Part shown: piece by piece, positions 5,908-39,461 of the stretch | Layout of the letters: each line of letters begins with the position of its first letter | How positions within the stretch are numbered: the first letter of the stretch is position 1 | Assembly: GCA_049322675.1 (NCBI GenBank) | Contig: JBMORM010000017.1 | Location: 3,928-67,927 of the forward strand | Reading direction: 5' to 3' | Source: Patescibacteria group bacterium | Lineage (GTDB): Bacteria > Patescibacteriota > JAHJAL01 | Length of the DNA: 64,000 nt | Program-made: the position numbers and the translations under genes | The notes under the pieces: generated by a model | Databases searched by the model: none | What the model was told of the DNA's origin: nothing | The model's input: the letters and a program-made list of their open reading frames with translations, nothing else

Positions 5908-7146
5908 ATGCAACATAAATTTCCCAAAGGATTTTTGTGGGGGGCGGCTTCGGCGGCACATCAGGTGGAGGGTGGGCTGGTGAATGATTGGTCGAGGTGG
6001 GAGTTAAAAAGTGCTAATGACTTGGCTCGGCAGGGGAAAGAGCGTTGGAATGAAGAGAAAAGGAAATTATTTCCTGGGATTACTGAGTCAAAAAATTATA
6101 TTTCCGGCCGGGCTTGCGATCACTATCATCGGTACAAGGAAGATTTTTTATTGGCCAAGCAATTGGGGCACAATGCGACTCGGATTTCGGTGGATTGGTC
6201 ACGGATAGAACCGAGAGAGGGTGTTTTTGTCCAGAAAGAATTGGACCATTATCTGGAGGTGGTTAAGTATTTGGAAGAGATGGGGATTGAGCCGATGGTG
6301 ACGTTGTGGCATTGGCCGTTGCCGTTGTGGTTGGCGGATAAGGGTGGGTGGAAAGATAAAAAAACGGTGGAATATTTTGTCCGTTTTTCAAGAAAGGTGG
6401 TTAATGCATTGAAATCCAAAGTGTCATTTTGGCTGACTTTGAATGAGCCGGAAGTGTATGCGGCCAATTCGTATTTTATCGGAGAGTGGCCGCCACAGGA
6501 AAAAAATATTTTTTCTGCTTGGTCGGTTTTAAACAATTTGATTGCGGCTCATTGCCAGGTTTATGAGGCGATAAAATTTTTAGATAAAAAGGCGCGGGTG
6601 GGGTTGGCCAAACAGATGGCGTATTTTGAAAATGCTGATGGAAAATGGTTGACGCAGTTAGTGCAGGATGCCAAGGATTATTATTGGAACCAATATGTTT
6701 TGAAGAAAACTAAAGACAAGCTGGATTTTTTTGGTTTAAATTACTATTTTCACGAAAAACAGTTTGGGTGGGGAGTGCGAAATGATGATGAGAGCCGTTC
6801 GGATTTGGATTGGGAATTGTTTCCGCAAGGAATTTACAATGTTTTATTGGATTTGAAAAAATATGATTTTCCGGTTTATATAACAGAAAATGGTTTGGCA
6901 GATGCTTTTGATAAAGATCGAACGTGGTTTATTGAAAAGAGTTTGCAGGCAGTAGCTAGAGCGATGCAGCAGGGGGTTGATGTGAGAGGTTATTTGCATT
7001 GGTCGCTTACTGACAATTTTGAGTGGAATCGGGGATTTTGGCCAAGATTTGGTTTGATAGAGATTGATTATAAAACGTTGGAGAGGAAGATCAGGCCGTC
7101 GGCGTGGGAATATAAGATAATTATTAATAATGGGATAGGTGTTTAA
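5908..7146 (+). CDS. Glycoside hydrolase family 1 (beta-glucosidase/6-phospho-beta-glucosidase type)
   Basis: N-terminal FLWGAASAAHQVEGG, TLNEP acid/base and ITENG nucleophile motifs. Confidence 0.85.
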   Translation: MQHKFPKGFLWGAASAAHQVEGGLVNDWSRWELKSANDLARQGKERWNEEKRKLFPGITESKNYISGRACDHYHRYKEDFLLAKQLGHNATRISVDWSRIEPREGVFVQKELDHYLEVVKYLEEMGIEPMVTLWHWPLPLWLADKGGWKDKKTVEYFVRFSRKVVNALKSKVSFWLTLNEPEVYAANSYFIGEWPPQEKNIFSAWSVLNNLIAAHCQVYEAIKFLDKKARVGLAKQMAYFENADGKWLTQLVQDAKDYYWNQYVLKKTKDKLDFFGLNYYFHEKQFGWGVRNDDESRSDLDWELFPQGIYNVLLDLKKYDFPVYITENGLADAFDKDRTWFIEKSLQAVARAMQQGVDVRGYLHWSLTDNFEWNRGFWPRFGLIEIDYKTLERKIRPSAWEYKIIINNGIGV

Positions 7147-7297
7147 TTTCCAATTTTTCCCTCACGGGACCGAACTACTGCTGGCAATTTTCAATTTCCA
7201 AATATGTATTGATGGGTATTATAAATAATTTTATAAAACATTGAAGATTGGTAATTGGAAATTTTTTGAAAATTGAAAATTGAAAATTGGAAATTTT
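7147..7297. repeat. Repeat-family copy: TTCCAATTTT array + core ccctcacgggaccgaactactgctggc (7147-7203), about 50 bp spacer, inverted GGAAATT/GAAAATTG array (7254-7297)
   Basis: Direct reading; the same units recur at 7940, 10876, 11997, 12249, 16884, 17529, 19017 and 34013. Confidence 0.8.
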
Positions 7298-7356
7298 GTT
7301 TCGCGTGGTCTATATTGTGAATAGTGATTATTTTTATCAATAAGAGGGTGAGCGAT

Positions 7357-7872
7357 ATGGCACAAATAAATAAAAAACAAGAAGTGTTGGCGACAAGGCC
7401 GATTGATGAGGAATATGATCCCAATCAGGTGTTTGAATGGGAGTCATACGAATTTGAATATCATGAAAAAGGAAAAAACTGGGTTTGGGGATTGGTGGGA
7501 GTGGTGGTTTTGATGTCTGTATTGTTTGCGGTATTGAAAAATTGGTTGGGGATCGGTATAGTGGTTTTATTGGCGATTGTAGTTTACCAGTATGCTTTCA
7601 AGAAACCGGATAAAATTCATTTTGTTTTAACCAAAGATGGTTTACTGGTTGGGGACAAGATGTATGCCTTCAAAGAGTTGAAACAATTTTGGGTGACACA
7701 TGAAGGAATGTTGTATATTGATACCAAACAATATATTCCGCCAAGATTGTCTTCGATGTTGAGTTCGGTAGATGTGGAAGCGATGGTAAAATTTTTGGAA
7801 TACAATGTTCCAAAAGTTGATCGCAAGACGGCCGATTCGGGGGATCAATTGTCGAAATGGCTGAAGCTTTGA
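7357..7872 (+). CDS. Hypothetical protein with one TM helix
   Basis: ATG at 7357 preceded by AGAGGG SD; the ORF-track N-terminal extension (7324) lies in repeat DNA. Confidence 0.45.
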   Translation: MAQINKKQEVLATRPIDEEYDPNQVFEWESYEFEYHEKGKNWVWGLVGVVVLMSVLFAVLKNWLGIGIVVLLAIVVYQYAFKKPDKIHFVLTKDGLLVGDKMYAFKELKQFWVTHEGMLYIDTKQYIPPRLSSMLSSVDVEAMVKFLEYNVPKVDRKTADSGDQLSKWLKL

Positions 7873-7939
7873 TGTTTCAATACTGTTACTTTATTTTTTG
7901 TTAGGTTAATTTTTTCTATACGATAGATTTATTGGTTGA

Positions 7940-8047
7940 GAAATTTTCAATTTCCAATTTTCAATTTTCAAAAAATTTCCAATGATCAATTTCCAAATAT
8001 CGAATTCTAAATATGTTTGAAAATTGAGAATTGAAAATTGGAAATTT
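7940..8047. repeat. Repeat-family copy: inverted pair of TTCCAATTTTCAA arrays (7940-7998 and 8018-8047)
   Basis: ttttcaatttccaattttcaattttcaaaaaatttccaa ... ttgaaaattgagaattgaaaattggaaattt. Confidence 0.8.
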
Positions 8048-8060
8048 GTGTTTTGTATGT

Positions 8061-8377: not shown

Positions 8378-8890
8378 ATGAAAATATCGAGGGGATTGAA
8401 TAAATTTTTGAATCTGTTGGTGGTGTTATCTATTGTTGGTTTAGTTGTGTATTTATTGGCGACTGCGTTTCGTAATGAGACAGAGTTGTTTATTGCGGAT
8501 TATGGGATGTATATTCTTTTGGTGATGACGGGGGTTTTGCTTGGTTTGCTGGTGGCTTGTTTTGTTTTGAGTATTATTAATTTTGTCAGATTTGCCAAGA
8601 CAAAAAATAAAGATTTTTTGTATAAAGCGTTGCGATATTTGTTTGTTTTTCCGGTGGTTGTGGTAGTTTTGTATTCGGTGGGGGTGTATGTAATTGATAG
8701 TATTTATCTGGATAGAAATATGCGGGGGCCGAGTGGAGGCTTTTCGACGTGTTATATGCCGGTTAGTTTAAATAAATTGGATTCGAATGTTGTTAATCAG
8801 AAAAAAAAATCGAGTTTGGCGAGTTTGACGGAAAAATACAAAAATAATATTCCAGCGGATGTTTTGGAAAAAATTGATCGGGTTAAATAG
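8378..8890 (+). CDS. Small multi-pass membrane protein, paralog 1 of 3 (C-terminal tail ...STCY...KYKNNIPADVLEKIDRVK)
   Basis: 3-4 TM helices; shares KxKxKDFLY..LRYLFVFPVVV and the C-terminal NN(I/L)PADVLEKIDR motif with 9293-9760. Confidence 0.6.
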   Translation: MKISRGLNKFLNLLVVLSIVGLVVYLLATAFRNETELFIADYGMYILLVMTGVLLGLLVACFVLSIINFVRFAKTKNKDFLYKALRYLFVFPVVVVVLYSVGVYVIDSIYLDRNMRGPSGGFSTCYMPVSLNKLDSNVVNQKKKSSLASLTEKYKNNIPADVLEKIDRVK

Positions 8891-8898
8891 GAGGATTT

Positions 8899-9240
8899 GT
8901 GAGGATTTCTAAAATAGTAAGCGTGTTATTGAAAATATTAATTTCTTTGTCATTTTTATTTTTATTTTTATTTTTTTTATTGCTCTATTTCCCGAGTATA
9001 TTTTCTGGTTTTCTTGATTCAAACGAAAATATTATTAAAGCGATGTTTGGGGTTTTAACATTAGTTTTGGGAGTTGGTTTTTTTATATCTTTTTCTTATG
9101 GTTTTGTCCTTTTAGTTCAATATTTCAAGAAAAAAGACAAGAAATATCTATCAGAATCATTGAGATATTTATTGTTATATTCTTTGCTAGTGCTTTTTGC
9201 TGATTTGATTGTTGTAACCATTGGGAGAGTTATTCTTTAA
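8899..9240 (+). CDS. Small multi-pass membrane protein, paralog 2 of 3 (GTG start; ends at tandem TAA TAA just before the conserved tail-coding motif)
   Basis: AGGAGG SD at 8889-8894, GTG at 8899; KKKDKKYLSESLRYLLLYSLLV aligns with paralogs 1 and 3; ADVLEKIDRG is encoded in-frame after two stops. Confidence 0.5.
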   Translation: MRISKIVSVLLKILISLSFLFLFLFFLLLYFPSIFSGFLDSNENIIKAMFGVLTLVLGVGFFISFSYGFVLLVQYFKKKDKKYLSESLRYLLLYSLLVLFADLIVVTIGRVIL

Positions 9241-9292
9241 TAAGCGGATGTTTTGGAAAAAATTGATCGGGGTTAATTTTTTGGGAGGGAGT

Positions 9293-9760
9293 ATGAAAGG
9301 TGCCAAGTGGGTAAATATTGTTCTGGGAATTATTTTGGGGAGTCCGTTGGTTCTATTGGTCGTTTTTAGTATTTGGGGATATATTGCGGACGATTTGGAT
9401 TATATTGATGGTTCGCAAGTAGAGAATCTGTATTTTACTTTGGTTAATTATCTATTGGGGATTGGATTTTTGATTTCTTTGATATATGGATTATATCTTT
9501 TGGGTAGATATATTCATAAAAAGGACAAAGAAATAATGCTATTGTCTTGGCGATATTTATTGCTATTTCCTGTGGTTGTTTTTTTGCTTTATTGTATTGT
9601 TGTTACTGTTCAGATGGTGATTGCTCAACCTGGAGTAACGTCGTGTTATATAATATCAGGCGACGTTAGTTGGAAAAGAGTAAATGAAAAATCAGATTTA
9701 TTAGCAAAATTTAAAAATAATCTTCCGGCGGATGTTTTGGAAAAAATTGATCGGGGTTAA
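9293..9760 (+). CDS. Small multi-pass membrane protein, paralog 3 of 3 (tail ...TSCY...FKNNLPADVLEKIDRG)
   Basis: GGGAGG SD then ATG at 9293; the ORF-track start at 9221 reads the junction repeat in another frame. Confidence 0.6.
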   Translation: MKGAKWVNIVLGIILGSPLVLLVVFSIWGYIADDLDYIDGSQVENLYFTLVNYLLGIGFLISLIYGLYLLGRYIHKKDKEIMLLSWRYLLLFPVVVFLLYCIVVTVQMVIAQPGVTSCYIISGDVSWKRVNEKSDLLAKFKNNLPADVLEKIDRG

Positions 9761-10763
9761 AGCCGATTTTAATCATTTTATTTATGAAGTGACGCCAAGC
9801 TGCAATCATGATTGCAGTTATTGTTATAATGTTTGGAAATATCGGGAATATCCTCAGGGACAATTGTTGGATTTGAGACAGTGGCAGGAAGTTACAGAGA
9901 GGTTGATGGAGCAGACAAATATTGGAACGGTTTCTATTTCCGGGGGAGAGCCGACTATATATCCGGATTTGGTGGTGTTGATCAAATATCTTCGAAGCAA
10001 AAAAATTAATGTCAATTTGTTGACCAACGGTAGCAATATTATTGAAGATTTAGCTAGAGAGTTGGTTGATTTAGATATTTCTATTTTTGAAATACCGTTG
10101 GTGGCGATAGACAAAGAATTGCACAAAAAGTTGAAAGGTCGGGATGATTATGATCAGGTGGTAAAAGGGATTGCTAATCTGACTTCTTTGGGAGCGACAG
10201 TTGTATCTGTCCTGGTGGCGACAAAAGATAATATTGATCAAAGCGCGGAAGTGGCGGAGTTGAGTATGGTTTTGGGTTGTCGGGGAATGATGTTCAATCG
10301 GATCAATCCGGCCAATAAAAAACAGATTGCTTTGATACCGTCAATTGAGCAAATCAAATCGGCGTTGGCAAAATTGGATATTATTTCCAATAAATATAAT
10401 TTTAGTATTAGCTGTTCAGTGCCGATCATGCCATGTTTGATCGATATGAAAAATTATAAAAATTTGTCCTATGGCTATTGCCCGGCCGGTGGCAAACGTT
10501 CATATCCGGTGATTGATTATTTGGGAAATGTGCGGGTGTGCAATCATTCGCCGAAAATATTGGGAAATATATTGGCGAAAGATTTGGATGATATTTTTTC
10601 GAAAAGTGAGTATTTTCAAAATTTTAAAAATTCATTTGCGGACAAGTGTCAGAAGTGTTCACTGGTTAAAGAATGTAAGGGTGGTTGTCGGGCGGCAGCG
10701 GAAGTGTGCTATGGTTGTTTGACAGATTTGGATCCGATGGCGAGGGAGAGGGGGAGTTTTTAA
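9732..10763 (+). CDS. Radical SAM enzyme with C-terminal SPASM-type Cys-rich domain (peptide-modifying maturase-like)
   Basis: CNHDCSYC (CxxxCxxC) near the N-terminus, GGEPT SAM-binding motif, C-terminal CPAGG...C...C..C...C..C SPASM-like cysteines. The start ATG lies inside the conserved junction motif. Confidence 0.8.
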   Translation: MFWKKLIGVKADFNHFIYEVTPSCNHDCSYCYNVWKYREYPQGQLLDLRQWQEVTERLMEQTNIGTVSISGGEPTIYPDLVVLIKYLRSKKINVNLLTNGSNIIEDLARELVDLDISIFEIPLVAIDKELHKKLKGRDDYDQVVKGIANLTSLGATVVSVLVATKDNIDQSAEVAELSMVLGCRGMMFNRINPANKKQIALIPSIEQIKSALAKLDIISNKYNFSISCSVPIMPCLIDMKNYKNLSYGYCPAGGKRSYPVIDYLGNVRVCNHSPKILGNILAKDLDDIFSKSEYFQNFKNSFADKCQKCSLVKECKGGCRAAAEVCYGCLTDLDPMARERGSF

Positions 10764-10875
10764 TTTATAAAAATATAGGTTGAAAAAAGTAGGATGTCGT
10801 CCTGGATATTGAAACGCCCAGTAGGGCTTTCAGTTCCAGGATGACACAATACAATCATTGATCATTCATTGATCA

Positions 10876-10917
10876 TTGGAAATTTTTTGGAAATTGAGAA
10901 TTGGAAATTGGAAATTT
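10876..10917. repeat. Repeat-family copy (GGAAATT orientation) embedded between two tcctgga-stem hairpins and 13-bp direct repeats ttccaggatgaca (10834-10846, 10957-10969)
   Basis: Direct reading. Confidence 0.75.
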
Positions 10918-10970
10918 CATCCTGGATCCTGGATAAGAAGCGTGATTACACTTTCTTTCCAGGATGACAT

Positions 10971-11288: not shown

Positions 11289-12806
11289 ATGACAAATGAG
11301 AGGAGAAAATTTGTTCCTACCTGGTTTTTGACGATGTCACAGATATTTTTTCTGATGCTAATTTTTTGTTGGCCGTTGGGAACCAGATTGCAGTGGTTGG
11401 GTGAATTTTCATATTTGGGAGGTGTGATTTCTGATCTGACGACATATTTTGTTTATGTGACTGATATTTTGTTGGTATTGGTTATTTTGGGTTGGTTGAT
11501 TGATATAGCGATAAAATTTTGGCGATATGAAGATTGGGATGAATGGAATTTGAATCCGTGGCAGGGGATGGTGGTTTTGTTTTTTGGTGGTTTGGCCGGT
11601 TGGGGCTTGTATTCGACTGTGTGGGCGATGATAGATGAAATTGCTTTGTATAAAGGATTACGGTTGGTGGGGATGTGGTGGCTATTTGCATATATTGTGT
11701 TGGTTGTTGGTAAAAATAAAATTTTAATAAGAAATACTTGGTTGGTTGGGTTGGCGACATTGGGTATTCAAGCAGTTTGGGGGATAGCTCAATATATAAA
11801 ACAAAGCGGATTTGGTTTGTGGCAGTTGGGGGAAAGTATTTTGGGAAAAACGGTGGCGGGAGTGGCGAAAGTAGATGTGGATGGAGAGAAGATAATAAGG
11901 GCGTATGGATCTTTGCCGCATGCGAATCTTTTTGGGGTATTTATGTTGTTGGGACTAATTTTGATACTTGTAATATTAGTTTATTCTGGGTGCGGCAAAA
12001 ATTTCCAATTTTCAATTTTTCCCTCACGGGACCGAACTGTTGCTGGCAATTTTCAAAAAATTTCCAATTTCCAATTTTCAAAGAATACTTCAACAATTAT
12101 TTTGGGAGTGCTACTGGGACTATTTTTGGTAGGGATGTTGGTGAGTTTTTCAAGAAGTGTGTGGGTGGCGGGGATGGTGATAATGGTTGGAGCAATTGTT
12201 GAGATGGTTCGTAGGGGCGAGGTTTCCTCGCCAGGGGAAGGGAAGGGGAAAAATTTTCAATTTTCAATTTTCAATTTCCAAAAAATTTCCAATTTTCAAA
12301 CAATATTGATAGGGTTATTTATTTTGTTAATAGCGACAGGATTGAATTGGAAAGTAGTTATGGGGAGGTCTAGTTTGGATGTGGGGAATGATGTGTCTTT
12401 GCAGGTACGGCAGGTTTATGATCAGGGGGCGGATTGGATGATTGAAAAATTTTATTATGGCGGGGTAGGGTTGGGAAATTTTGTATTGGTGTTGCCGTAT
12501 TTTGCCGGTAAGGCCAATCTACAGTGGTGGCAATATCAGCCGGTTCACAATGTTTTCAAATTGGTTTGGTCGGAACTGGGCGTTTTTGGTTATATTTTGT
12601 TAATATTACTTATGGTTAGTATTGCAGCGATGATATTGTTTGATGATCAAAAAAAGTATCCCAAATATTTTTGGTTAAGTGTTATTTTGTCGATGATATT
12701 TTTGATGTTTTTTGATCATTATTTCTGGGATGTGTGGCAGGGGATGATGGGGTGGGCGGTGTTTCTGGGGGTTATGGTGGTTGGGGGAAGTAGTAAAAAA
12801 ACTTAG
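11289..12806 (+). CDS. O-antigen ligase/polymerase-family (Wzy_C) membrane protein carrying two in-frame repeat insertions
   Basis: SFSRSVWVAG and QPVHNVFKLVWSELGVFG motifs of the O-antigen ligase family; repeat copies at 11997-12083 and 12249-12300 translate in-frame. Confidence 0.6.
   Translation: MTNERRKFVPTWFLTMSQIFFLMLIFCWPLGTRLQWLGEFSYLGGVISDLTTYFVYVTDILLVLVILGWLIDIAIKFWRYEDWDEWNLNPWQGMVVLFFGGLAGWGLYSTVWAMIDEIALYKGLRLVGMWWLFAYIVLVVGKNKILIRNTWLVGLATLGIQAVWGIAQYIKQSGFGLWQLGESILGKTVAGVAKVDVDGEKIIRAYGSLPHANLFGVFMLLGLILILVILVYSGCGKNFQFSIFPSRDRTVAGNFQKISNFQFSKNTSTIILGVLLGLFLVGMLVSFSRSVWVAGMVIMVGAIVEMVRRGEVSSPGEGKGKNFQFSIFNFQKISNFQTILIGLFILLIATGLNWKVVMGRSSLDVGNDVSLQVRQVYDQGADWMIEKFYYGGVGLGNFVLVLPYFAGKANLQWWQYQPVHNVFKLVWSELGVFGYILLILLMVSIAAMILFDDQKKYPKYFWLSVILSMIFLMFFDHYFWDVWQGMMGWAVFLGVMVVGGSSKKT
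11997..12083. repeat. Repeat-family copy with core (ttccaattttcaattttt-ccctcacgggaccgaactgttgctggc-aattttcaa...) inside the ligase CDS
   Basis: Direct reading; no stop in the host frame. Confidence 0.8.
12249..12300. repeat. Repeat-family copy (TTTTCAATTTTCAATTTTCAATTTCCAAAAAATTTCCAATTTTCAA) inside the ligase CDS
   Basis: Direct reading. Confidence 0.8.
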
Positions 12807-12906
12807 CAAACGTAGCAAACATAACAAACACTTTGAAACGCTTTGAAACTCTTATAAACGCTTAAAAACTAAAAGATTGTTTTGTATTAGAATTAATTAG
12901 ATATTT

Positions 12907-14841: not shown

Positions 14842-14842
14842 T

Positions 14843-14877
14843 AGGTTCTAGGTTCTAGGTTCTAGGTTCTAGGTTTT
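14843..14877. repeat. Heptanucleotide tandem repeat (AGGTTCT)x4 plus a degenerate fifth unit, in the wzx-GT2 intergenic/promoter region
   Basis: ataggttctaggttctaggttctaggttctaggtttt read directly. Confidence 0.9.
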
Positions 14878-14898
14878 AGATATTAGGTGATAGGTAAT

Positions 14899-16375: not shown

Positions 16376-17524
16376 ATGAAAATTGCGATTGATTATCGGG
16401 AGGCGATACGGGAGAATAAAGCCGGGAAGGGGGTGGTGGTTTGGCAGTTGGTGGACAGATTGAAAAAGATCATTTTGGATGATGAGGTGGATTTGCTGGT
16501 GGATGAGGATTTTGTTTTTGAGGATTTTCCGGCCAATTGGCATAAAAAAATAATTGGTGGGAAAGGATTGAAATGGCATTGGAACGTTTGGCGGAAATTG
16601 AAAAACTATGATCGGTATTTGTCTTTGACCAGTTTTTTGGTGCCGGCGTTTGATTGGAATAAAAAGTGTATTATCTTTGTTCACGATTTGGTGGTGTTTT
16701 ATGATGAATTGGCGAAGAAACACAATCGGAAAGCGTATTGGATGGAACGATTGACATTGGGTGCAGCTTTGAAAAAGGCGCGGAAAATAATTGTGCCGTC
16801 AGAGACGACGGGGGAGGATTTAAAAAAGTTTTTTAAAGTTGACGAAAATAATTTTTCTTTGGTTTATGAGGGAGTTAACATTCAAAATTTCCAATTTCCA
16901 ATTTTTCCCTCACGGGACCGAACTGCTGCTGGCAATTTTCAAACATATTTTGATGAAAATATTGGGGAGATAAAAAAGAAATTTGGGATTACTGGTGATT
17001 ATTTGTTTTTTGTGGGGACTTTGGAGCCGAGGAAAAATTTGTCGAATTTAATTTTGGCATATGATAAATTGGTTAAAAAATACGGATGGGAGGGGCAGTT
17101 GGTTTTGGCTGGAAAAAAGGGTTGGTATTTTGATGAACTTTTTACTTTAGTAAAGAAACTGAATTTGGAAAAGAAAGTTATTTTCACTGGATTTACGACG
17201 GATGAAGAAAAATTTATTTTAATAAAAGACGCGAAGTGTTTTTGTATGGTAAGTCGATATGAAGGTTTTGGGTTGCCGATACTCGAGGCGATGTCGGTGG
17301 GGACGCCGGTGGTGACGAGTAATAATTCCAGTTTGTCGGAAGTGGCGGGGGAGGCGGTGGTTTTGGTGGATCCAGATAATGTTGAAGAAATCGCCAGCGG
17401 AATTCAAAAAGTATTGTCTGATAAAGTTCTGGCGGATAGTTTGGTTAAAAAGGGAATGGAGAGGATAAAATTGTTTGACTGGGAAAAAGCGGCGGGGGAA
17501 GTGTATAATTTAGTTAGGGATTAG
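16376..17524 (+). CDS. Glycosyltransferase family 4 (GT-B) carrying an in-frame repeat insertion
   Basis: FFVGTLEPRKN...LVLAGKKGW...MVSRYEGFGLPILEAMSVGTPVVTSNNSSLSEVAG are GT4 motifs; repeat at 16884-16943 is in-frame. Confidence 0.85.
   Translation: MKIAIDYREAIRENKAGKGVVVWQLVDRLKKIILDDEVDLLVDEDFVFEDFPANWHKKIIGGKGLKWHWNVWRKLKNYDRYLSLTSFLVPAFDWNKKCIIFVHDLVVFYDELAKKHNRKAYWMERLTLGAALKKARKIIVPSETTGEDLKKFFKVDENNFSLVYEGVNIQNFQFPIFPSRDRTAAGNFQTYFDENIGEIKKKFGITGDYLFFVGTLEPRKNLSNLILAYDKLVKKYGWEGQLVLAGKKGWYFDELFTLVKKLNLEKKVIFTGFTTDEEKFILIKDAKCFCMVSRYEGFGLPILEAMSVGTPVVTSNNSSLSEVAGEAVVLVDPDNVEEIASGIQKVLSDKVLADSLVKKGMERIKLFDWEKAAGEVYNLVRD
16884..16943. repeat. Repeat-family copy with core (ccctcacgggaccgaactgctgctggc) inside the GT4 CDS
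   Basis: Direct reading. Confidence 0.8.
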
Positions 17525-17528
17525 AGGG

Positions 17529-17643
17529 AAATTTCCAATTTCCAATTTTCAAAAAAGGCTTAATTTCCAATTTTCAAACAAAATTCATTGGAAATTGGTC
17601 ATTGAAAATTTATTGGAAATTGAGACTTGGAAATTGGAAATTA
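17529..17643. repeat. Repeat-family copy: inverted pair of arrays (17529-17577 TTCCAATTT orientation; 17588-17643 GGAAATTGG orientation)
   Basis: Direct reading. Confidence 0.8.
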
Positions 17644-17659
17644 TTTTCTATAAATTATT

Positions 17660-19033
17660 TTGAAATTATCTTTCATAAATAAATATTCTTTGTTTTATTG
17701 TTTGGCTGGATTTGGCTTGTTGCTTTTGTATGCTTTGTTGTCGGTAATCGATGTAAAATTGGCGATGGGAGTGATGGGGGCGGGGATATTATTTTTTCTG
17801 TTTTGGTTGGATCTTAGATGGGGAATTGTGGTTTTATTGTTATCGGTTTTGTCGGGTCAGATTGTTCGTTTTAGTTTTGGTTCGGCGGCAATATTGCCTT
17901 CGGATGGAGTAATGGTGGTATTGTTATTGGTCTGGATTTTGAAAATACTGGTAGAAAAGAGGAAATTGGTATTTGATGTTACAATTGTTTCCTTGCTGGT
18001 ATTTTGGGTGGTTAGTCTGGTAATAAATTTGGCGATTGTGGATCGTTATGAACTCCAGCAACAGAAGACGATTTGGCTATATTGGTTAAGATTGATTATT
18101 TATTCTACTTGTTTGCCGATAACTATGAATATTGTTAATTGGTATGGCGAACAAAAGAAATTTTTTAGATGGTTTATTTACCTGGGATTGGCGTTTTTGG
18201 TTTTGGGTTTTGTGCAGTTGGTGATTTTGCCTGATATAAGTTTTTTAACGGATTATGGCTGGGATCCTCATCAGGGGAGATTGCTTTCAACTTTTTTGGA
18301 TCCCAATTTTGCCGGAGCGTTTTTGATAATATGTTTTGCGGTGAGTTTTAGTATGTATTTCGGGCAAGTAAAATGGAATAAACAGAAATTATGGTGGATA
18401 GTATTGAGTGGATTATTTTTGGGTGGAATTGTTTTGACTTTATCTCGTAGCGCTTTGGTTTCTTTGGTTTTTGTATTTGGTTGGTTAGCGTGGTGGTGGG
18501 ATAAAAGATTGTTGTTGTTTGGTTTATTTACTTCAATTACTTTGTTGATCAATGATCAGAGGTTGATGCAACGGGTGGTGGGGATAGTGGAATTTGATGA
18601 AACAGCAATGTTGAGATTGCAATCCTGGAATGATAGTTGGCAGATTGTGCAAGATAATTTTTGGACGGGGATTGGGTACAACGCTTTGTCGTTTGAACAG
18701 TTTCGTCGGGGCATAATTACTGATATCAATGTTCATTCGGCGGGCGGATCGGATAGTAGCTATTTGACAATTTGGACAACTCTGGGGTTGATAGGACTGT
18801 TTTTTTGGCTTTTGATTTTTGTTTTTTTTGTGTCTCGATCGATAACGATGTATTGGAAAGAAAAAAAAGATCAGAGTCAGAAATTTTTGATTTTGGGAGT
18901 GGTGTTGGCGGTTTTGGGAGTAATGATTCACGCTCAGTTTACCAATAGTATGTTATATGTGCATATTATGATTCCGGTTTGGTTTTTGATGGGAGTAGTG
19001 CTGGGAGGAAAAGATAAAATTTCCAATTTCTAA
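17660..19033 (+). CDS. O-antigen ligase/polymerase-family membrane protein (second paralog); start uncertain
   Basis: LTLSRSALVSL and HSAGGSDSSYLTIWTTLGLIGL (H...YL...LG..G) motifs; the last codons (KISNF*) are encoded by the palindromic repeat. Confidence 0.55.
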   Translation: MKLSFINKYSLFYCLAGFGLLLLYALLSVIDVKLAMGVMGAGILFFLFWLDLRWGIVVLLLSVLSGQIVRFSFGSAAILPSDGVMVVLLLVWILKILVEKRKLVFDVTIVSLLVFWVVSLVINLAIVDRYELQQQKTIWLYWLRLIIYSTCLPITMNIVNWYGEQKKFFRWFIYLGLAFLVLGFVQLVILPDISFLTDYGWDPHQGRLLSTFLDPNFAGAFLIICFAVSFSMYFGQVKWNKQKLWWIVLSGLFLGGIVLTLSRSALVSLVFVFGWLAWWWDKRLLLFGLFTSITLLINDQRLMQRVVGIVEFDETAMLRLQSWNDSWQIVQDNFWTGIGYNALSFEQFRRGIITDINVHSAGGSDSSYLTIWTTLGLIGLFFWLLIFVFFVSRSITMYWKEKKDQSQKFLILGVVLAVLGVMIHAQFTNSMLYVHIMIPVWFLMGVVLGGKDKISNF

Positions 19034-19088
19034 TTTTTAATTTTTAAACATATTTTGTTTAGAAATTAAAAATTAGAAATTAAAAATT
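19017..19088. repeat. About 70-bp imperfect palindrome variant of the repeat family (tttccaatttctaatttttaatttttaaac-atatt-ttgtttagaaattaaaaattagaaattaaaaattt), ending 7 nt before the next gene start
   Basis: Direct reading; close homolog at 34013-34082. Confidence 0.8.
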
Positions 19089-19094
19089 TGGTTT

Positions 19095-20381
19095 ATGATT
19101 ATTTGGTTGTTGGTTGCTATTTTTTTAGTGATTACTTACCTGTTGGCGAAGGAAGATTTGTTGTGGGCGATTGGTTGGATGATATTTATGGCGCCATCAT
19201 ATATTGTGAGATTGAATTTTTTTGGGATTCCAACCAATGCTTTGGAGTTGGGTGTTTATGTTGTGTTTTTGGTGTGGATAATCAGAATAATTAGGGGTAA
19301 GAGTATTTTTCGCTGGAGAAAATTTTATTGGTTGCCCTTGATTTTGCTTTTTGTAGCTTTGATATCGATAATTTTGGTTGCTGATGACCGAAAAATGTCG
19401 TTGGGTCTTTGGAAAGGATGGATTTTTGATCCGATTTTGATTTTTTTGATTGTGAGTTGCGAATTTAGGAAGTTGGCGCAGATTTCATGGATAAAAAGTG
19501 GATTTTTGTTTTTGGTAGGGATGTTGGGAACAATCGGAATATGGCAATGGTTAACCGGAAATATTGATACGGTGGATGGTCGTTTGGCGGTGTTTTTCAC
19601 TTCGGCCAATTATTTGGCAATGCTGTTGGCTTCGGGTTTGAGTTTTTTGTTGGCTGGTTTTTTGATGGAAAAAAAGAGAAAATGGTGGGAAATATTTTTT
19701 TTGGTTTTAGGACTTTGGGCCTTGATTGCTTCGGGCTCATTTATAAGTGTATTTGCATTAGTCTTGACGGTGGGTTGGATGGTTTTGGCGGGATGGCAAA
19801 AAAAAGGAAATGTAATATTATGGGTGATATTTGGTTGTGTTTTAGTGGCGGCGATATTTTTTGGGACTCAAATCGGCTCAGAGAGAATGTCAAATATGCT
19901 GGATTTAAGCAAAAGATCGTCGGTGACAGTTCGGATGCAGGTTTGGCAGACGGCGTGGGCAATGGTGGCGGACAATCCTGTTGTTGGTATTGGTTTGGGA
20001 AATTTTGAGAAAAAATATATTGAGTATTTACCGTCAGTAGTTGCCAATCCTTTGGAATGGCGGATGCTGCATGCGCATAATTTTTGGCTACAAACTTGGC
20101 TAACTATGTCTATCTTTGGATTATTGGTGTTTTTGATGATAGTTATTTATAGTTGGTGGTTGGGAATGAGAATGATAAAAAGGTTAGAAAAACAATTTTG
20201 GGTAGTCTATGGGTTAATGGGATATTTATTGTCATTTGTTTTAGTCGGCTTGTTGGATACTCCTTATTATAAAAATGATTTTTCGTTGATTTTTTGGATA
20301 ATGATTGGTTTGTTGATAGCGTTGACAAAAATTTTACAGAAAGAAAAAAGATATTTGAAAAAAATGGGGAAAAAGATATGA
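19095..20381 (+). CDS. O-antigen ligase-family membrane protein (third paralog)
   Basis: LDLSKRSSVTVRMQVW...GIGLGNFE...HAHNFWLQTWLTMSIFGLL, the classic Wzy_C signature. Confidence 0.7.
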   Translation: MIIWLLVAIFLVITYLLAKEDLLWAIGWMIFMAPSYIVRLNFFGIPTNALELGVYVVFLVWIIRIIRGKSIFRWRKFYWLPLILLFVALISIILVADDRKMSLGLWKGWIFDPILIFLIVSCEFRKLAQISWIKSGFLFLVGMLGTIGIWQWLTGNIDTVDGRLAVFFTSANYLAMLLASGLSFLLAGFLMEKKRKWWEIFFLVLGLWALIASGSFISVFALVLTVGWMVLAGWQKKGNVILWVIFGCVLVAAIFFGTQIGSERMSNMLDLSKRSSVTVRMQVWQTAWAMVADNPVVGIGLGNFEKKYIEYLPSVVANPLEWRMLHAHNFWLQTWLTMSIFGLLVFLMIVIYSWWLGMRMIKRLEKQFWVVYGLMGYLLSFVLVGLLDTPYYKNDFSLIFWIMIGLLIALTKILQKEKRYLKKMGKKI

Positions 20382-21493
20382 AAATTGCTATTGATGCCAG
20401 GTTTATCAGTAATGGTTCCGGCTTGGGACGTTACGCATACAAGCTATTGGAGTTTTTGTTGAAGTTGGATAACAAAAATGAATATATAATTATTGTGTAT
20501 AAGGGTGAAGAGAAGTTTGTTGATTATAAATATGGAAAATATCGGGTGCTTGGAGTTGATTTCCAACATTATTCGTTGGCGGAGCAATGGGGATATTGGA
20601 AATTTTTAAACAGTTTGAAATGTGATTTGGTGCATTTTACCAATTTTAATCATCCTATACTTTATCGTGGTAAGTTTGTGGTCACGATTCATGACTTAAC
20701 GTTGATGTTTTACCCGGGCAGAGTAAGGAGAAAATGGATTTCGGAGTTTGGTTATAAATTGGTTATGAAAAGTGCGGTCTTGAATTCGGCGAAGATTATT
20801 GCGATTTCAGAATTTACCAAAAGAGATATCTTAAAATATTTTGGTGGGCGGAAAAACAAAATGGAGGTAATATATGAAGCCGCCAATGAAAAGTTTGAGC
20901 AGATAAAAAATTTGTCCAAGATAACGCGAACAAAAGAAAAATATCATATTTCCAAACCATATTATTTGTACACAGGTCAGTGGCGGGTGCATAAAAATCT
21001 GGTGAGATTGATTGAGTCGTTTTCCATGGTTAAAGATCAGAATCATGATACTCAGTTGGTTTTGGTTGGCAAAGAGGATCCGCGTTATCCGGAAGTAAGA
21101 GAATCGATCTCCAAATCCAAGTACAAAAATGATATTATAATAACTGGATTTATTGCTGATGAAGATTTGTCTTCATTGTATAGTGGTGCGATTAGTTTTG
21201 TTTTTCCTTCGCTGTATGAAGGTATTGGTTTACCACCTTTGGAAGCGATGCGTTGTGGAATACCGGTAATATCTTCTGATGCTTCCTGTATGCCGGAGAT
21301 TTTGGAGGAGGCGGTGTTGTATTTTGATCCTTATGATTTGCAGGAAATTTCGGAGGCAATGATCAGGGTGTTTCGAGAGGAGAAATTACGAGAAGACTTG
21401 ATTAAAAAAGGTTTTCGGCAAGTTGAAAAATATTCATGGGAGAAGATGGCGGCGGAAACTTTGGTTGTATATAATAGTATTTTGGGTGGTTAG
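20378..21493 (+). CDS. Glycosyltransferase family 4
   Basis: ATG 20378 overlaps the upstream stop (ATGA); YLYTGQWRVHKNL...LVLVGKEDP...FPSLYEGIGLPPLEAMRCGIPVISSDASCMPEI. Confidence 0.85.
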   Translation: MKIAIDARFISNGSGLGRYAYKLLEFLLKLDNKNEYIIIVYKGEEKFVDYKYGKYRVLGVDFQHYSLAEQWGYWKFLNSLKCDLVHFTNFNHPILYRGKFVVTIHDLTLMFYPGRVRRKWISEFGYKLVMKSAVLNSAKIIAISEFTKRDILKYFGGRKNKMEVIYEAANEKFEQIKNLSKITRTKEKYHISKPYYLYTGQWRVHKNLVRLIESFSMVKDQNHDTQLVLVGKEDPRYPEVRESISKSKYKNDIIITGFIADEDLSSLYSGAISFVFPSLYEGIGLPPLEAMRCGIPVISSDASCMPEILEEAVLYFDPYDLQEISEAMIRVFREEKLREDLIKKGFRQVEKYSWEKMAAETLVVYNSILGG

Positions 21494-21568
21494 AGTTTGG
21501 AATTGATTTAAAAATATCGGATGTAAAAATTTTTAGTATAAATATTTCATTAATTTATTTGAGGAGAA

Positions 21569-38043: not shown

Positions 38044-39398
38044 TATTCAAAAATAAAAAAATGATTATGAAAAGTGATGGCGACAATAGCAAAGAACTGG
38101 TAGGAGAAAATTTAACATTGGATCACAATATTGATGTGAGTGTCAATTTAACAAAAGAAAGAAGATTTGATCTTGATTTTAATAAATTGAGTCAAAGAAC
38201 CGGCCAAATGTTGGATGATGAGGACGGTAAGATTGGTGAGGTAGAAAAAACATCAAAGTTGATTGAAAGAAATGGAGAGGAAATTGCCCCTGGAATAAAA
38301 ATCCAGACGAGTGGCTGGAGAATTATTTTTGAACAGGATTTAGATAAGTGCAAATTGTTTGATAATCAGCGTTTTGCTTTAAGGTATTTTGACAAAAATA
38401 AGAAAATTTCTAAAATATGTTATTTTACAAAGGATGGAATTGTAAGTTTGTTTGACAATAATTGTGGAAATATATATGAGTTGAAATTGCCGATTGATGG
38501 TTTAAATATGGCAAATGAAAAATATTTTGCCAGATTACGTTTGGTGTTACAGGAAAAGATAGATAACAAAAATGAATATAAGGATTTATCTTTTGACGAT
38601 TTTGATGTCTTGATAAAATTTTTTGATTTTCAAAGAAATGGAATTGATGTTTTCGCTGATCAAACCGATAAAATTGCGAGTGAGAAAGATATTCCAAAAG
38701 AGATAAATGAGAATTTAAATCAGGTAACTGGTTTTTGTTTGGAGCTAAATAATTTGATTGATAAAAATGGTTATGATAATAATTATAAAATAAAGCAATT
38801 GATGTTGGATGATGGGGGGAGGGATGATCGAGTATTGGATTATTATAATTTCCAGGCTTTCCCTGAGCAGGGCAAAATATATGGAAATATTAATTGTTTG
38901 GAAAAAGAATATTCATTATCAATCATTTATCATGAGGCGGCACACATATTTTATGAATCAATTCCGGAAGATAGGGCTGATGGAATTTGCAAACAAAAAA
39001 TAAAGAATGATTTTTATGAATTATTGGATGTTTGTGGATTAGACAAAACTAAGTTGGATTTTAAAACGGAATATCGGCAGGCGTTTGAAAAAAATGAGTT
39101 ATTTCGGATAATTGATGAGTCAAGGTATGTAAAAACTAATTTGTCTGAGAAAGATAAGAACAAACCGGGACATCCTTATGACGGTTTTGAAGAAATGTTT
39201 GCCAGTATTATTGCGATCACGCAAATTCCGCAATATAGAGAACAAATGATTAATAATCTAAAATTGAGTTCGTTGGATGATAAACAAAAAACTGCCTTAT
39301 CGAAGGCAATTAATGATTGTTTAAAGACGATGAATAAATCGGGGATTGAGGTGGAATGGAGAGAAGAAAACTCTTATAAACCCTTAGAAACTCTTTAA
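38040..39398 (+). CDS. Hypothetical protein with HExxH motif ([12 protein letters not shown]), possible zinc metallopeptidase-like; start uncertain (38040 or 38061)
   Basis: Motif seen in sequence only; no other family signature recognised. Confidence 0.4.
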
Positions 39399-39436
39399 AA
39401 CTCTTATTAATTTCAGTTTGTAAGAGTTTGTAAGGG
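39381..39436. terminator. Bidirectional terminator hairpin (cccttagaaactctt ... aagagtttgtaaggg) between convergent genes
   Basis: 15-bp stem with one mismatch; overlaps the stop of the 38040-39398 gene. Confidence 0.6.
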
Positions 39437-39461
39437 TTTTAAGTTTAGAAGTGTTTGAAAT

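Follow-up and report, generated by a model that had tools for sequence, protein, structure and literature searches.

The 19-codon insert in a GT4 glycosyltransferase gene is a copy of an element that belongs to a short, modular interspersed repeat family in a small Patescibacteria clade. The family is probably best described as an RPE/MITE-like interspersed repeat built on heptamer arrays that are open in every sense frame, with the copies seen in coding sequence probably representing the survivors of a filter.

Anatomy and phase of the repeat element

The element was found three times in the window (the whole 64-kb stretch of DNA that was analysed), against 0 copies expected from 100 shuffles. 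It is 57-60 nt long and consists of (AATTTYC)2-AATTTTT, a GC-rich core of 27 nt, CCCTCACGGGACCGAACTGCTGCTGGC, and AATTTTCAA. A core-spanning 40-mer matched with at most one mismatch at 7155-7194, 12017-12056 and 16903-16942, on the + strand in all three cases, and the 17-mer CCCTCACGGGACCGAAC matched without mismatch at 7159, 12021 and 16907. The three copies lie in a GT4 glycosyltransferase gene, in a gene for a Wzy-like membrane protein, and between genes, where the copy begins at a GH1 stop codon.

16376..17524, + strand: GT4 glycosyltransferase gene, 382 aa, host of the insert (ORF, Pfam, AF2, Foldseek)
16886..16942, + strand: in-frame GT4 copy, 19 codons, NFQFPIFPSRDRTAAGNFQ, residues 171-189
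16907..16933, + strand: 27-nt core of the GT4 copy (40-mer and 17-mer matches)
11289..12806, + strand: polytopic membrane protein, weakly Wzy_C-like, with two repeat inserts (ORF)
12000..12085, + strand: site 1 of the Wzy-like gene, in-frame copy NFQFSIFPSRDRTVAGNFQ, core at 12021-12047, then heptamers (KISNFQFSK)
12252..12303, + strand: site 2 of the Wzy-like gene, in-frame array of heptamers only, NFQFSIFNFQKISNFQ
7145..7203, + strand: intergenic copy, core at 7159-7185, starting inside the GH1 stop TAA (7144-7146)

All three copies share the phase that reads ..FPSRDRTAAGNFQ.. (frame c). The offsets of the core from the ORF starts are divisible by three (16907-16376 = 531; 12021-11289 = 732; 7159-5908 = 1251), which makes its CCC a codon of both the GT4 ORF and ORF 11289-12806 and places it in phase with GH1. 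A sequence-only reading had placed an in-frame core repeat at 16884-16943 of the GT4 gene, in the frame common to the other copies, and both the sequence and this phase arithmetic agreed with it. The copies translate as NFQFPIFPSRDRTAAGNFQ in GT4 and NFQFSIFPSRDRTVAGNFQ in ORF 11289-12806, and the phase past the GH1 stop gives FPIFPSRDRTTAGNFQFP. Its statement that three copies are read in one frame held for the phase but not for translation, since only two of the three are translated; the copy next to GH1 is only in phase with that gene, past its TAA. The chance of 1 in 9 attached to this coincidence was right as arithmetic but is weak on its own. Stops do not force the frame, because the element can be read through in each of its three forward frames.

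The family is assembled from A-T-rich (AATTTYC)n arrays, the 27-nt core, which falls into two subfamilies, and a GC-clamped palindrome that is present only in longer composite copies (TsaD, L004), where the unit reaches ~111 nt. Direct repeats AATTTYCAA stand on both sides of the core and are indistinguishable from the heptamer array itself. Inverted heptamer arms enclose the intergenic copies, and coding copies carry the left-arm heptamer type only. A small CCC-UCAC-GGG stem recurs, one C:G pair longer in subfamily 2. We also observed that the three window copies all lie within 10 kb of one envelope-polysaccharide gene cluster, a clustering not obviously expected of a randomly spreading element.

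The GT4 insert lies in an interdomain linker

The GT4 protein (identical to NCBI MFZ5392219.1) matched Pfam Glyco_transf_4 over residues 21-170 (E = 2.4e-8) and Glycos_transf_1 over residues 198-361 (E = 1.3e-38). Its AF2 model (pLDDT 93.3) has a GT-B fold, for which Foldseek returned MshA, BshA and WaaG with E-values down to 1.8e-21. The only low-confidence stretch of the model is the insert, with pLDDT below 50 at residues 175-179 and 182-185; it is modelled as coil, with a strand at 160-162 before it and a helix at 188-202 after it, between the two Pfam/Rossmann domains. The insert is missing from GT4 orthologues P0006-P0016 (~50-55% identity), and at the identical spot the closest orthologues have repeat-derived inserts that are unrelated to it. 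The earlier view of the repeat as an insertion into GT4 is thereby borne out by the orthologues and by the low-pLDDT coil between the Pfam domains. In the model these 19 residues form a disordered loop in the linker between the two domains, and the insert probably has little effect on function. Separately, stretch 20382-21568 was considered as a pseudogene and ruled out: it is an intact second GT4 gene (ORF 20294-21493).

The element recurs in related Patescibacteria

The 27-mer, varying solely at positions 19-20, was present in five loci of other Patescibacteria assemblies, a degree of conservation to be read with the ascertainment bias of an exact-match scan, which can recover conserved copies only. 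Diverged cores occur at L004 site 1, L012 and L013. Where a source record names its organism, it is always a Patescibacteria MAG. About 14 core copies were counted in roughly 185 kb of related loci, against 3 in the 64-kb window. Elsewhere the core lies within coding sequence in RsmE (L003), at Wzy-like site 2 (L004, L006) and in TsaD (P0121, P0123), and between genes, 3' of co-oriented genes, in L001, L002 and L005; L001, from MAG DAIRGB01, holds the orthologue of the intergenic copy at 7145..7203. In every case the core runs in the sense direction of its host or upstream gene. In genome JAEAMF01 the copies belong to one core subfamily specific to that genome, suggestive of concerted evolution.

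The open reading frame continues unbroken through the element in GT4, RsmE, the Wzy-like ORF and TsaD (P0121, P0123, P0125). Heptamer arrays also occur in the essential housekeeping genes TsaD, ValRS and RsmE. TsaD P0121 has four inserts with ~170 extra residues in all, which lengthen the protein from ~340 to 507 residues, and in sister lineages the same GT4 and TsaD loops hold unrelated heptamer-derived inserts. The second window host, which had been called a ligase, has only a sub-threshold Wzy_C match (E = 0.005; 17 bits, with the Pfam cut-off at 31.7). Its orthologues (L004/L014, L006, L009) showed that presence or absence of the core differs within orthologous arrays. At site 1, L004 has a variant core and L006 has none, the segment between AATTTTCAA direct repeats in L004 being missing from L006; at site 2, L004 and L006 have the core and the window has heptamers alone.

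Frame c predominates among coding copies

A frame-blind DNA pattern scan found frame c (FPSRDRTAAG) at 4 of 4 independent coding sites, namely GT4, Wzy-like site 1, Wzy-like site 2 in L004, and RsmE in L003. Five further frame-c copies were seen in TsaD orthologues. The tally over ~185 kb of related loci came to at least 7 independent frame-c sites, 2 frame-a sites, and no frame-b or antisense coding sites; independent coding sites are few, and frame c is inflated in this tally because P0121 and P0123 were retrieved with a frame-c profile. Both frame-a sites are in TsaD P0121, where site 2 reads FFPRGTELLLAIF and site 4 carries a core variant, FSPHGDQLVP; the DNA of these copies was back-inferred from the peptide only. 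P0121 very probably comes from the same MAG as the window, since its NCBI accession and that of the window GT4 are 99 apart.

The proposal that copies are confined to a single frame therefore stood as over-representation and fell as exclusivity, given that TsaD P0121 reads frame a twice. At TsaD site 2, P0121 reads the core in frame a but P0123 and P0125 read it in frame c, and a fixed insertion phase is therefore unlikely. Random frame usage accompanied by stop-containing pseudogene copies, the outcome named beforehand as contradicting the proposal, did not turn up either. The peptide of frame c, FPSRDRTAAGNFQ, is hydrophilic and rich in Pro, Gly and Ser (GRAVY -0.86), and the corresponding values are +1.16 for frame a, FFPHGTELLLAIF, and +0.25 for frame b, FSLTGPNCCWQFS. 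These values agree better with selection that removes the more hydrophobic or Cys/Trp-rich frames than with selection for a useful encoded peptide; the latter, suggested by the earlier reading, found no support.

Heptamer arrays are open in all sense frames and form hairpins between genes

The unit AATTTYC contains no stop in any sense frame and its length of 7 nt is not a multiple of 3, so heptamer arrays are open in all three sense frames, and translating them always yields NFQF(S/P)I(F/S) in one of its cyclic permutations. Likewise, none of the three sense frames of the core contains a stop. On the antisense strand two of three frames contain stops, and (GAAAATT)n arrays contain stops in all. 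Intergenic copies lie directly 3' of a co-oriented gene, with the heptamers forming the arms of long hairpins. The window holds the following arms and hairpins beside the copies listed above.

7241..7297, + strand: inverted heptamer arm (GRAAATT)n, pairing with the heptamers that flank the intergenic copy
7940..8047, + strand: heptamer-array hairpin between ORF 7324-7872 and tRNA-Arg (inverted repeat I19; z = -2.57)
10868..10918, + strand: single (GRAAATT)n arm in the spacer after a radical-SAM gene
17527..17646, + strand: heptamer-array hairpin directly after the GT4 stop, without core
19016..19089, + strand: variant heptamer hairpin (AATTTCT/AATTTTT; inverted repeat I14; z = -8.27)

Intergenic heptamer hairpins were strongly structured (z from -5.6 to -8.3), with a weaker value at 7940..8047. 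The hairpin after the GT4 stop folded at -41.6 kcal/mol (z = -6.2), and 0 of 200 shuffles were as stable. The Wzy_C gene 17660-19033 terminates within the left arm of the hairpin at 19016..19089 (..KISNF*). In the fold of 7130-7310 (-39.5 kcal/mol, z = -1.86) the core occupies a side branch between an outer and an inner stem. Coding copies showed no RNA structure beyond that of shuffles (z = -0.46, -0.01 and +0.42, the first two for the GT4 copy). A role for RNA structure in the coding copies was dropped for this reason.

Origin of the shared frame

We propose that a copy lands in, or recombines into, a gene and would be retained there under four conditions: it is in sense orientation, its total length preserves the host frame, it falls in a tolerant surface loop or domain linker, and the peptide that it adds is harmless, which would favour frame c, FPSRDRTAAGNFQ, over frame a, FFPHGTELLLAIF, and frame b, FSLTGPNCCWQFS. 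With such a harmless-peptide filter, the shared frame would be survivorship bias, and neither a fixed insertion phase nor a useful peptide would be needed. Spread would most likely proceed by recombination or gene conversion between heptamer arrays together with slippage within arrays, and transposition in trans is possible. Among the available orthologues we found neither a target-site duplication distinguishable from the heptamer array nor an empty-/filled-site pair at high identity, and no transposase or related insertion sequence came up, within an unsystematic view of the window ORFs; that the element is mobile is thus something we infer.

An extension of this reading, which we hold only tentatively and with low confidence, is that the heptamer arrays serve as frame-neutral "landing pads" in tolerant protein loops, where cassettes can be swapped or re-read while the gene stays intact. 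Slippage or recombination in the flanking arrays, which are open in every sense frame, would re-phase whatever lies between them, and the cassettes exchanged at the same loop would be the 27-nt core, GC palindromes and other heptamer families. If true, this would be a so-far undescribed route of rapid protein-loop remodelling in ultra-small genomes, essential proteins included, and it would explain both the growth of TsaD from ~340 to 507 residues and the unrelated lineage-specific inserts at identical positions of GT4, TsaD and Wzy-like proteins.

The same data bear on four other explanations. The core could be a cassette moved into pre-existing heptamer arrays by recombination or gene conversion through flanking AATTTYC, with the register of the recipient setting the frame. 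Orthologous arrays with and without core at Wzy-like sites 1 and 2 (window, L004, L006), the mosaic build of the elements from recurring modules, and the genome-specific subfamily across the JAEAMF01 copies all point this way. However, because arrays cycle through three frames, the frame of the core would not be fixed by recombination into an array alone, and TsaD site 2 is read in two frames. As a mode of spread the cassette route is compatible with the filtered-repeat reading; as an account of the frame bias, which it leaves unexplained, we consider it unlikely. Contingency loci, in which 7-nt slippage would switch the envelope genes (GT4, Wzy-like) on and off, would suit a unit length not divisible by 3, the location of arrays within a surface-polysaccharide cluster, in its glycosyltransferase and Wzy-like genes, and array lengths that vary among orthologues. 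We regard this as extremely improbable: the arrays are imperfect and too short for more than 3 identical units to follow one another, they occur also in essential TsaD, ValRS and RsmE and as hairpins outside genes, and every copy seen is in frame, with no frameshifted allele found.

In favour of the 27-mer being a nucleic-acid signal under nucleotide selection, wherever it lies (for DNA uptake, protein binding, or RNA processing or regulation), are its near-invariance across assemblies, its constant sense orientation relative to the host or upstream gene, and the recurrent CCC-UCAC-GGG stem, lengthened in subfamily 2. Between L004 and L006 the core is identical at 25 of 27 positions, against 65% identity at third codon positions of the host gene; for core third positions alone (8 of 9 against 65%) the difference is not significant (binomial p ~0.12, one pair). 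The near-invariance is itself subject to the ascertainment bias of the exact-match scan, diverged copies exist, and coding copies fold like shuffles. Rfam searches at the gathering score and at E <= 5 returned only tRNAs and chance matches and nothing on any copy. The core had no match in the viral contigs searched, so a phage attachment site or protospacer origin is without support. The reverse complement of the core, CAGTTCGGTCCC, presumably resembles a conserved 23S rRNA stretch, an idea likewise without support. Moreover, 3 copies in 64 kb and ~14 in 185 kb are far below the hundreds to thousands per genome of uptake sequences (PMC2817400), and a signal of this kind is in our judgement quite improbable. 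The last explanation, that FPSRDRTAAGNFQ is a selected functional module (a linker, recognition tag or modification site) in several proteins, would fit the same peptide recurring in GT4, the Wzy-like protein, RsmE and TsaD with frame c predominant. Its hosts, however, are unrelated cytoplasmic enzymes and a membrane protein, it is predicted to be disordered, close orthologues have unrelated repeat-derived peptides or nothing in its place, and TsaD reads the same DNA in frame a, while other copies of it are untranslated; we give it very little credence. A composite four-frame peptide query, run as a frame census against an index of 5.8 billion proteins, returned 1 candidate and no match within the limit of that word index.

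Implications and comparison with known repeats

Patescibacteria are regarded as extremely streamlined. Essential genes, TsaD for one, are among those affected. The heptamer design offers a simple sequence-level reason why insertions are survivable, with all sense frames open and the antisense strand closed. The inserts inflate protein lengths and break profile matches, as in the Wzy-like ORF that falls under the Pfam threshold, and they can mislead CPR protein annotation and alignment. A literature search for repeats or MITEs in Patescibacteria/CPR turned up nothing relevant.

The closest likeness is to RPEs (Ogata et al. 2000, 2002), which lie in-frame within Rickettsia genes. As summarised in PMC10969869, they share with our element short repeats both between genes and in-frame in intact, unrelated housekeeping genes, a conserved peptide added per copy, predicted compatibility with the host fold, and small reduced genomes. 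By the same account, RPEs are ~100-150 bp and palindromic, whereas the element is 57-60 nt and its coding copies in the window have no significant structure. Unlike RPEs as described there, it is built from heptamer arrays that lack stops in any sense frame, its DNA is translated in two different registers, and different repeat families replace each other at one loop in sister lineages. It also belongs to another phylum and has another sequence, a separation drawn from host and description. With MITE/ERIC/BOX elements (Delihas 2007 and others, cited in PMC10969869) it has in common small repeats with open frames, in-frame fusions to host ORFs, and intergenic hairpins; it appears to differ from them in that its coding copies have no terminal inverted repeats and no demonstrable target-site duplication.

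Uptake sequences are ~9-12 nt long and accumulate by point mutation, not as inserts. Our element, unlike them, has a 27-nt core, ~1 copy per 10-20 kb, discrete insertion and a single orientation. The two are alike in preferring certain frames and poorly conserved positions: within coding regions, uptake sequences are biased in reading frame and fall on poorly conserved residues (Findlay and Redfield 2009, PMC2817400), and their bias is explained by tolerated peptides (PMC2817400). Finally, the structured heptamer hairpins immediately 3' of stops, with z-scores to -8.3, resemble REP/REPIN and terminator-like repeats (e.g. SPRITE); REPs are extragenic by definition, whereas the heptamer arrays described here are also found inside ORFs.

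Results

Three copies of a modular element in the window

A 40-mer spanning the core matched the window three times with at most one mismatch, as against 0 matches in 100 dinucleotide-preserving shuffles:

7155-7194, + strand, after the GH1 gene (ORF 5908-7146); core from 7159, 1251 nt from the ORF start
12017-12056, + strand, inside the Wzy-like membrane-protein gene (ORF 11289-12806); core from 12021, 732 nt from the ORF start
16903-16942, + strand, inside the GT4 glycosyltransferase gene (ORF 16376-17524); core from 16907, 531 nt from the ORF start

Repeat finding grouped the same copies into one 60-nt family (D6) at 83-100% identity. The unit consists of (AATTTYC)2-AATTTTT, the 27-nt core CCCTCACGGGACCGAACTGCTGCTGGC and AATTTYCAA, together 57 nt or 19 codons. 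The sequence-only reading had placed the GT4 copy at 16884-16943 and proposed an identical frame for all three; its sequence stands as written, its translations are correct, and 1251, 732 and 531 are all multiples of three. The copy at 7147 keeps the GH1 phase but follows the GH1 stop (TAA, 7144-7146) and is not translated.

The GT4 copy is an insert between two domains

The element copy in GT4 is an insert of 19 residues (171-189), lying exactly between the Pfam domains Glyco_transf_4 (residues 21-170) and Glycos_transf_1 (residues 198-361). GT4 is a standard GT-B enzyme, its AlphaFold model (mean pLDDT 93.3) superposing on MshA, BshA and WaaG; in the model the insert, modelled as coil between strand 160-162 and helix 188-202, is the sole low-confidence part (pLDDT <50 at 175-179 and 182-185). 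No insert is present in the orthologues that are 47-55% identical (P0006-P0016, among them the syntenic gene of locus L004). The closest orthologues lack the window's element and carry other inserts at the same position: those of P0002 and P0003 (84% and 78% identical by BLASTP, 382 aa each) read VLGTRCQILDGEEKGERDLKFETQS and VLGSRYKVLEGREKGDQNSKLKTQN and are encoded by AGGTNYT-type and CAAAACT-type heptamers, that of P0004 consists of heptamers only (NFQFSISNFQ), and the 30 residues in P0005 derive from heptamers of the AAATGAC and AAACTCA types. Heptamers of the AGGTTCT type, from which the GT4 inserts are translated in frame in the closest orthologues (L006, L009), also make up nearly all of the flippase-GT2 spacer (14842-14886) as an (AGGTTCT)4-AGGTTTT-AGATATT-AGGTG array running into the GTG start codon, the (AGGTTCT)4 array lying at about 14845-14880. 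At its start (16883-16891, CAA AAT TTC; zero frame A-AAT-TTC) the GT4 element has the X-XXY-YYZ form of a -1 slippery site, where a shift would read frame b to a TGA about 60 nt downstream and leave a product with the N-domain alone. The resemblance probably arises by chance from the A/T richness of the array.

Heptamer arrays are open in every sense frame

Heptanucleotide arrays like those flanking the element are found more widely in the window, concentrated at 7-20 kb. Between genes, (AATTTYC)n arrays of the sense type base-pair with inverted (GRAAATT)n arrays, and the resulting long hairpins stand immediately 3' of stop codons:

17520-17655, fold of -41.6 kcal/mol, z = -6.2
19010-19095, fold z = -8.3
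7930-8055, fold z = -2.6
related locus L002, fold z = -5.6

Intragenic arrays in the window are of the sense type only (12000-12079, 12252-12297, 16886-16899), because AATTTYC repeats contain no stop in any sense frame, always reading as a cyclic permutation of NFQF(S/P)I(F/S), while (GAAAATT)n has TGA in each frame. No sense frame of the full 62-nt element contains a stop (KISNFQFFPHGTELLLAIFK, KFPISNFSLTGPNCCWQFSN, NFQFPIFPSRDRTAAGNFQT), and of its antisense frames only one is open. Stop codons therefore account for orientation, but not for frame.

Other repeats occur nearby. An unrelated repeat of about 50 nt, TGTCATCCTGGAACTGAAAGCCCTAC(C/T)GGGCGTTTCAAT(A/G)TCCAGGA, forms inverted pairs around a heptamer arm (10795-10850 and 10918-10970) and is conserved between genomes, standing just after the GT4 stop in L006 and L009; it may represent a MITE or else a structured RNA. 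Two small membrane-protein ORFs (8378-8890, 9221-9760) end in near-identical motifs, NNIPADVLEKIDRVK and NNLPADVLEKIDRG, with a related copy at 9222-9276 (families D9, D14). The radical-SAM/SPASM gene (9732-10763) has its start overlapped by the second motif; the arrangement may be precursor-peptide-like.

Inserts turn over in orthologues

Scanning for exact copies of the core, irrespective of reading frame, yielded five loci, two from GTDB genomes and three from metagenomes:

L001 (MAG DAIRGB01), copy downstream of GH1, orthologous to the window's
L002 and L005, intergenic copies, each just 3' of a co-oriented ORF
L003, copy inside an RsmE methyltransferase, reading ..ELRANFQFPIFPSRDRTAAGNFQTYAEK..
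L004, copy at the second site of the Wzy-like orthologue

Aligning four Wzy-like orthologues revealed insert turnover at two sites. Site 1 contains the core in the window, the variant core CCCCTCACGGGGATCAGCTGCTGCCGAC (translated FPSRGSAAAD) in L004, and nothing between the flanking AATTTTCAA repeats in L006. At site 2 the core is present in L004 and L006, the window has heptamers only, and L009 has AAACTCA-type heptamers. ORF 11289-12806 matches Wzy_C only weakly (17 bits, below the Pfam threshold of 31.7; the neighbouring gene 17660-19033 scores 59 bits), perhaps in part owing to its repeat inserts.

TsaD proteins and the reading frame

Searching a 19-column profile of the frame-c peptide, the reading found in GT4 and the Wzy-like protein, against 1.84 billion representative proteins gave two real matches, both TsaD (P0121, P0123). 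P0121 has 507 aa and four inserts, as against about 330-390 aa for most TsaD homologues listed. Its site 1 (NFQFPVYPSRDRTAAGNFQ) is in frame c, site 2 (IFNFQFFPRGTELLLAIFNKFSISNFQ) is the core in frame a, and site 4 (ISNFSPHGDQLVPKFPIS) is a variant core in frame a. P0123 carries a frame-c copy (NFQFLVFPSRDRTAADNFQ) at the very site 2 where P0121 has frame a, and all three variant-core copies of the TsaD protein P0125 are in frame c. Since their accessions (MFZ5392318.1 and MFZ5392219.1) are 99 apart, P0121 and the window's GT4 very probably come from one MAG.

Independent coding sites numbered at least seven in frame c, two in frame a and none in frame b, with no antisense coding copies in ~185 kb of related loci. 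For the four sites found free of frame bias, the chance of all falling in one frame is 1 in 27; at least seven of nine in one prespecified frame gives p = 0.008, for a set partly ascertained through frame c. Frame c is thus genuinely favoured, though not exclusively: the single frame proposed earlier holds at those seven or more sites and fails at the two frame-a sites of P0121. Core GRAVY is -0.86 in frame c, +1.16 in frame a and +0.25 in frame b, which includes Cys-Cys-Trp; the ranking c > a > b fits a filter on harmlessness of the added peptide.

In TsaD, ValRS and the Wzy-like protein (P0121; L013 738, 1032 and 3890; L004 Wzy-like site 1) the heptamer-core unit is followed by another in-frame module, reading ..NNVGAGFKPA.., ..VGAGRDLPG.. 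or ..VGADHDLPD..

Discussion

The element is modular, has open frames, sits at loop or linker positions and is exclusively sense in orientation. Its core turns over within orthologous arrays, and the same loops are filled by different repeat families in sister lineages. Copies probably reach genes by insertion or through recombination of one array with another, and at 3' ends also through stop-codon loss. The L004 Wzy-like protein extends 14 residues past the end of the window's, lacks the stop and apparently runs on into the tandem array behind it; its tail (..NLSNVANISNPLKRF) matches, by eye, the array past the window's stop (tagcaaacgtagcaaacataacaaacactttgaaacgc..). Tandem units of 9-10 nt (AGCAAACGT.., AAACGCTTTG.., AAACTCTTAT..) lie 3' of two gene stops (12807-12870, 39368-39461). 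In the Wzy_C gene 17660-19033 the last codons (..KISNF*) fall within the left arm of a nearly perfect hairpin with 34-bp arms (19016-19089), and the variant heptamer AATTTCTAA creates the stop. Selection would then purge all but sense, frame-preserving, loop-located, hydrophilic copies. At sites 1 and 2 of P0121 the core is in different frames, yet the modules downstream of it (NFQ-KNNVGAGFKPA) share one, extra heptamer material in between absorbing the shift. Such a pattern is expected if the core is re-phased by slippage or recombination in its flanking arrays. Transposition is a possible route, but we found no filled/empty site pair at high identity and no target-site duplication distinguishable from the heptamer array itself, and came across no transposase.

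A function of the core at the nucleotide level would agree with its near-invariance, its constant sense orientation and a small CCC-UCAC-GGG stem, with one C:G pair added in the variant core. Yet copy number is low, diverged copies exist and an exact-match scan favours conserved ones, the copies have no Rfam matches, viral contigs contain no core, and coding copies fold no better than shuffles, so that we hold such a signal to be improbable. Against selection on the encoded peptide, one of the two options named in the sequence-only reading, stand its translation in two frames, its replacement in close orthologues and its predicted disorder, all of which contradict it, and a functional peptide is more doubtful still. 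Phase variation through the heptamer arrays has the smallest chance of being correct: the arrays are short and imperfect, and occur also in TsaD, ValRS and RsmE. Insertion or array recombination followed by purging is the more probable account. The earlier observation is confirmed and its interpretation partly supported, with the frame coincidence itself largely explained. Of more interest, and only partly explained, are the frame-neutral heptamer design and the way inserts keep turning over in the same loops of essential proteins, in a lineage whose genome is supposedly streamlined.

Full-text literature searches returned no description of such elements in Patescibacteria. Rickettsia palindromic elements (PMC10969869) are repeats inserted in the reading frame of unrelated genes, with a predicted fit to the fold, and the window's element works alike. 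As in Rickettsia, the VGA-type module is a true 'protein-coding palindrome': GC-clamped palindromes, GGGCAGATCATGATCTGCCC among them, encode it. In contrast, the coding unit of the window's element is not a palindrome, is at most half the size and comes from another phylum. Uptake sequences within coding regions provide a precedent for frame bias (PMC2817400), but the copy number here is far too low. The element belongs to neither family.
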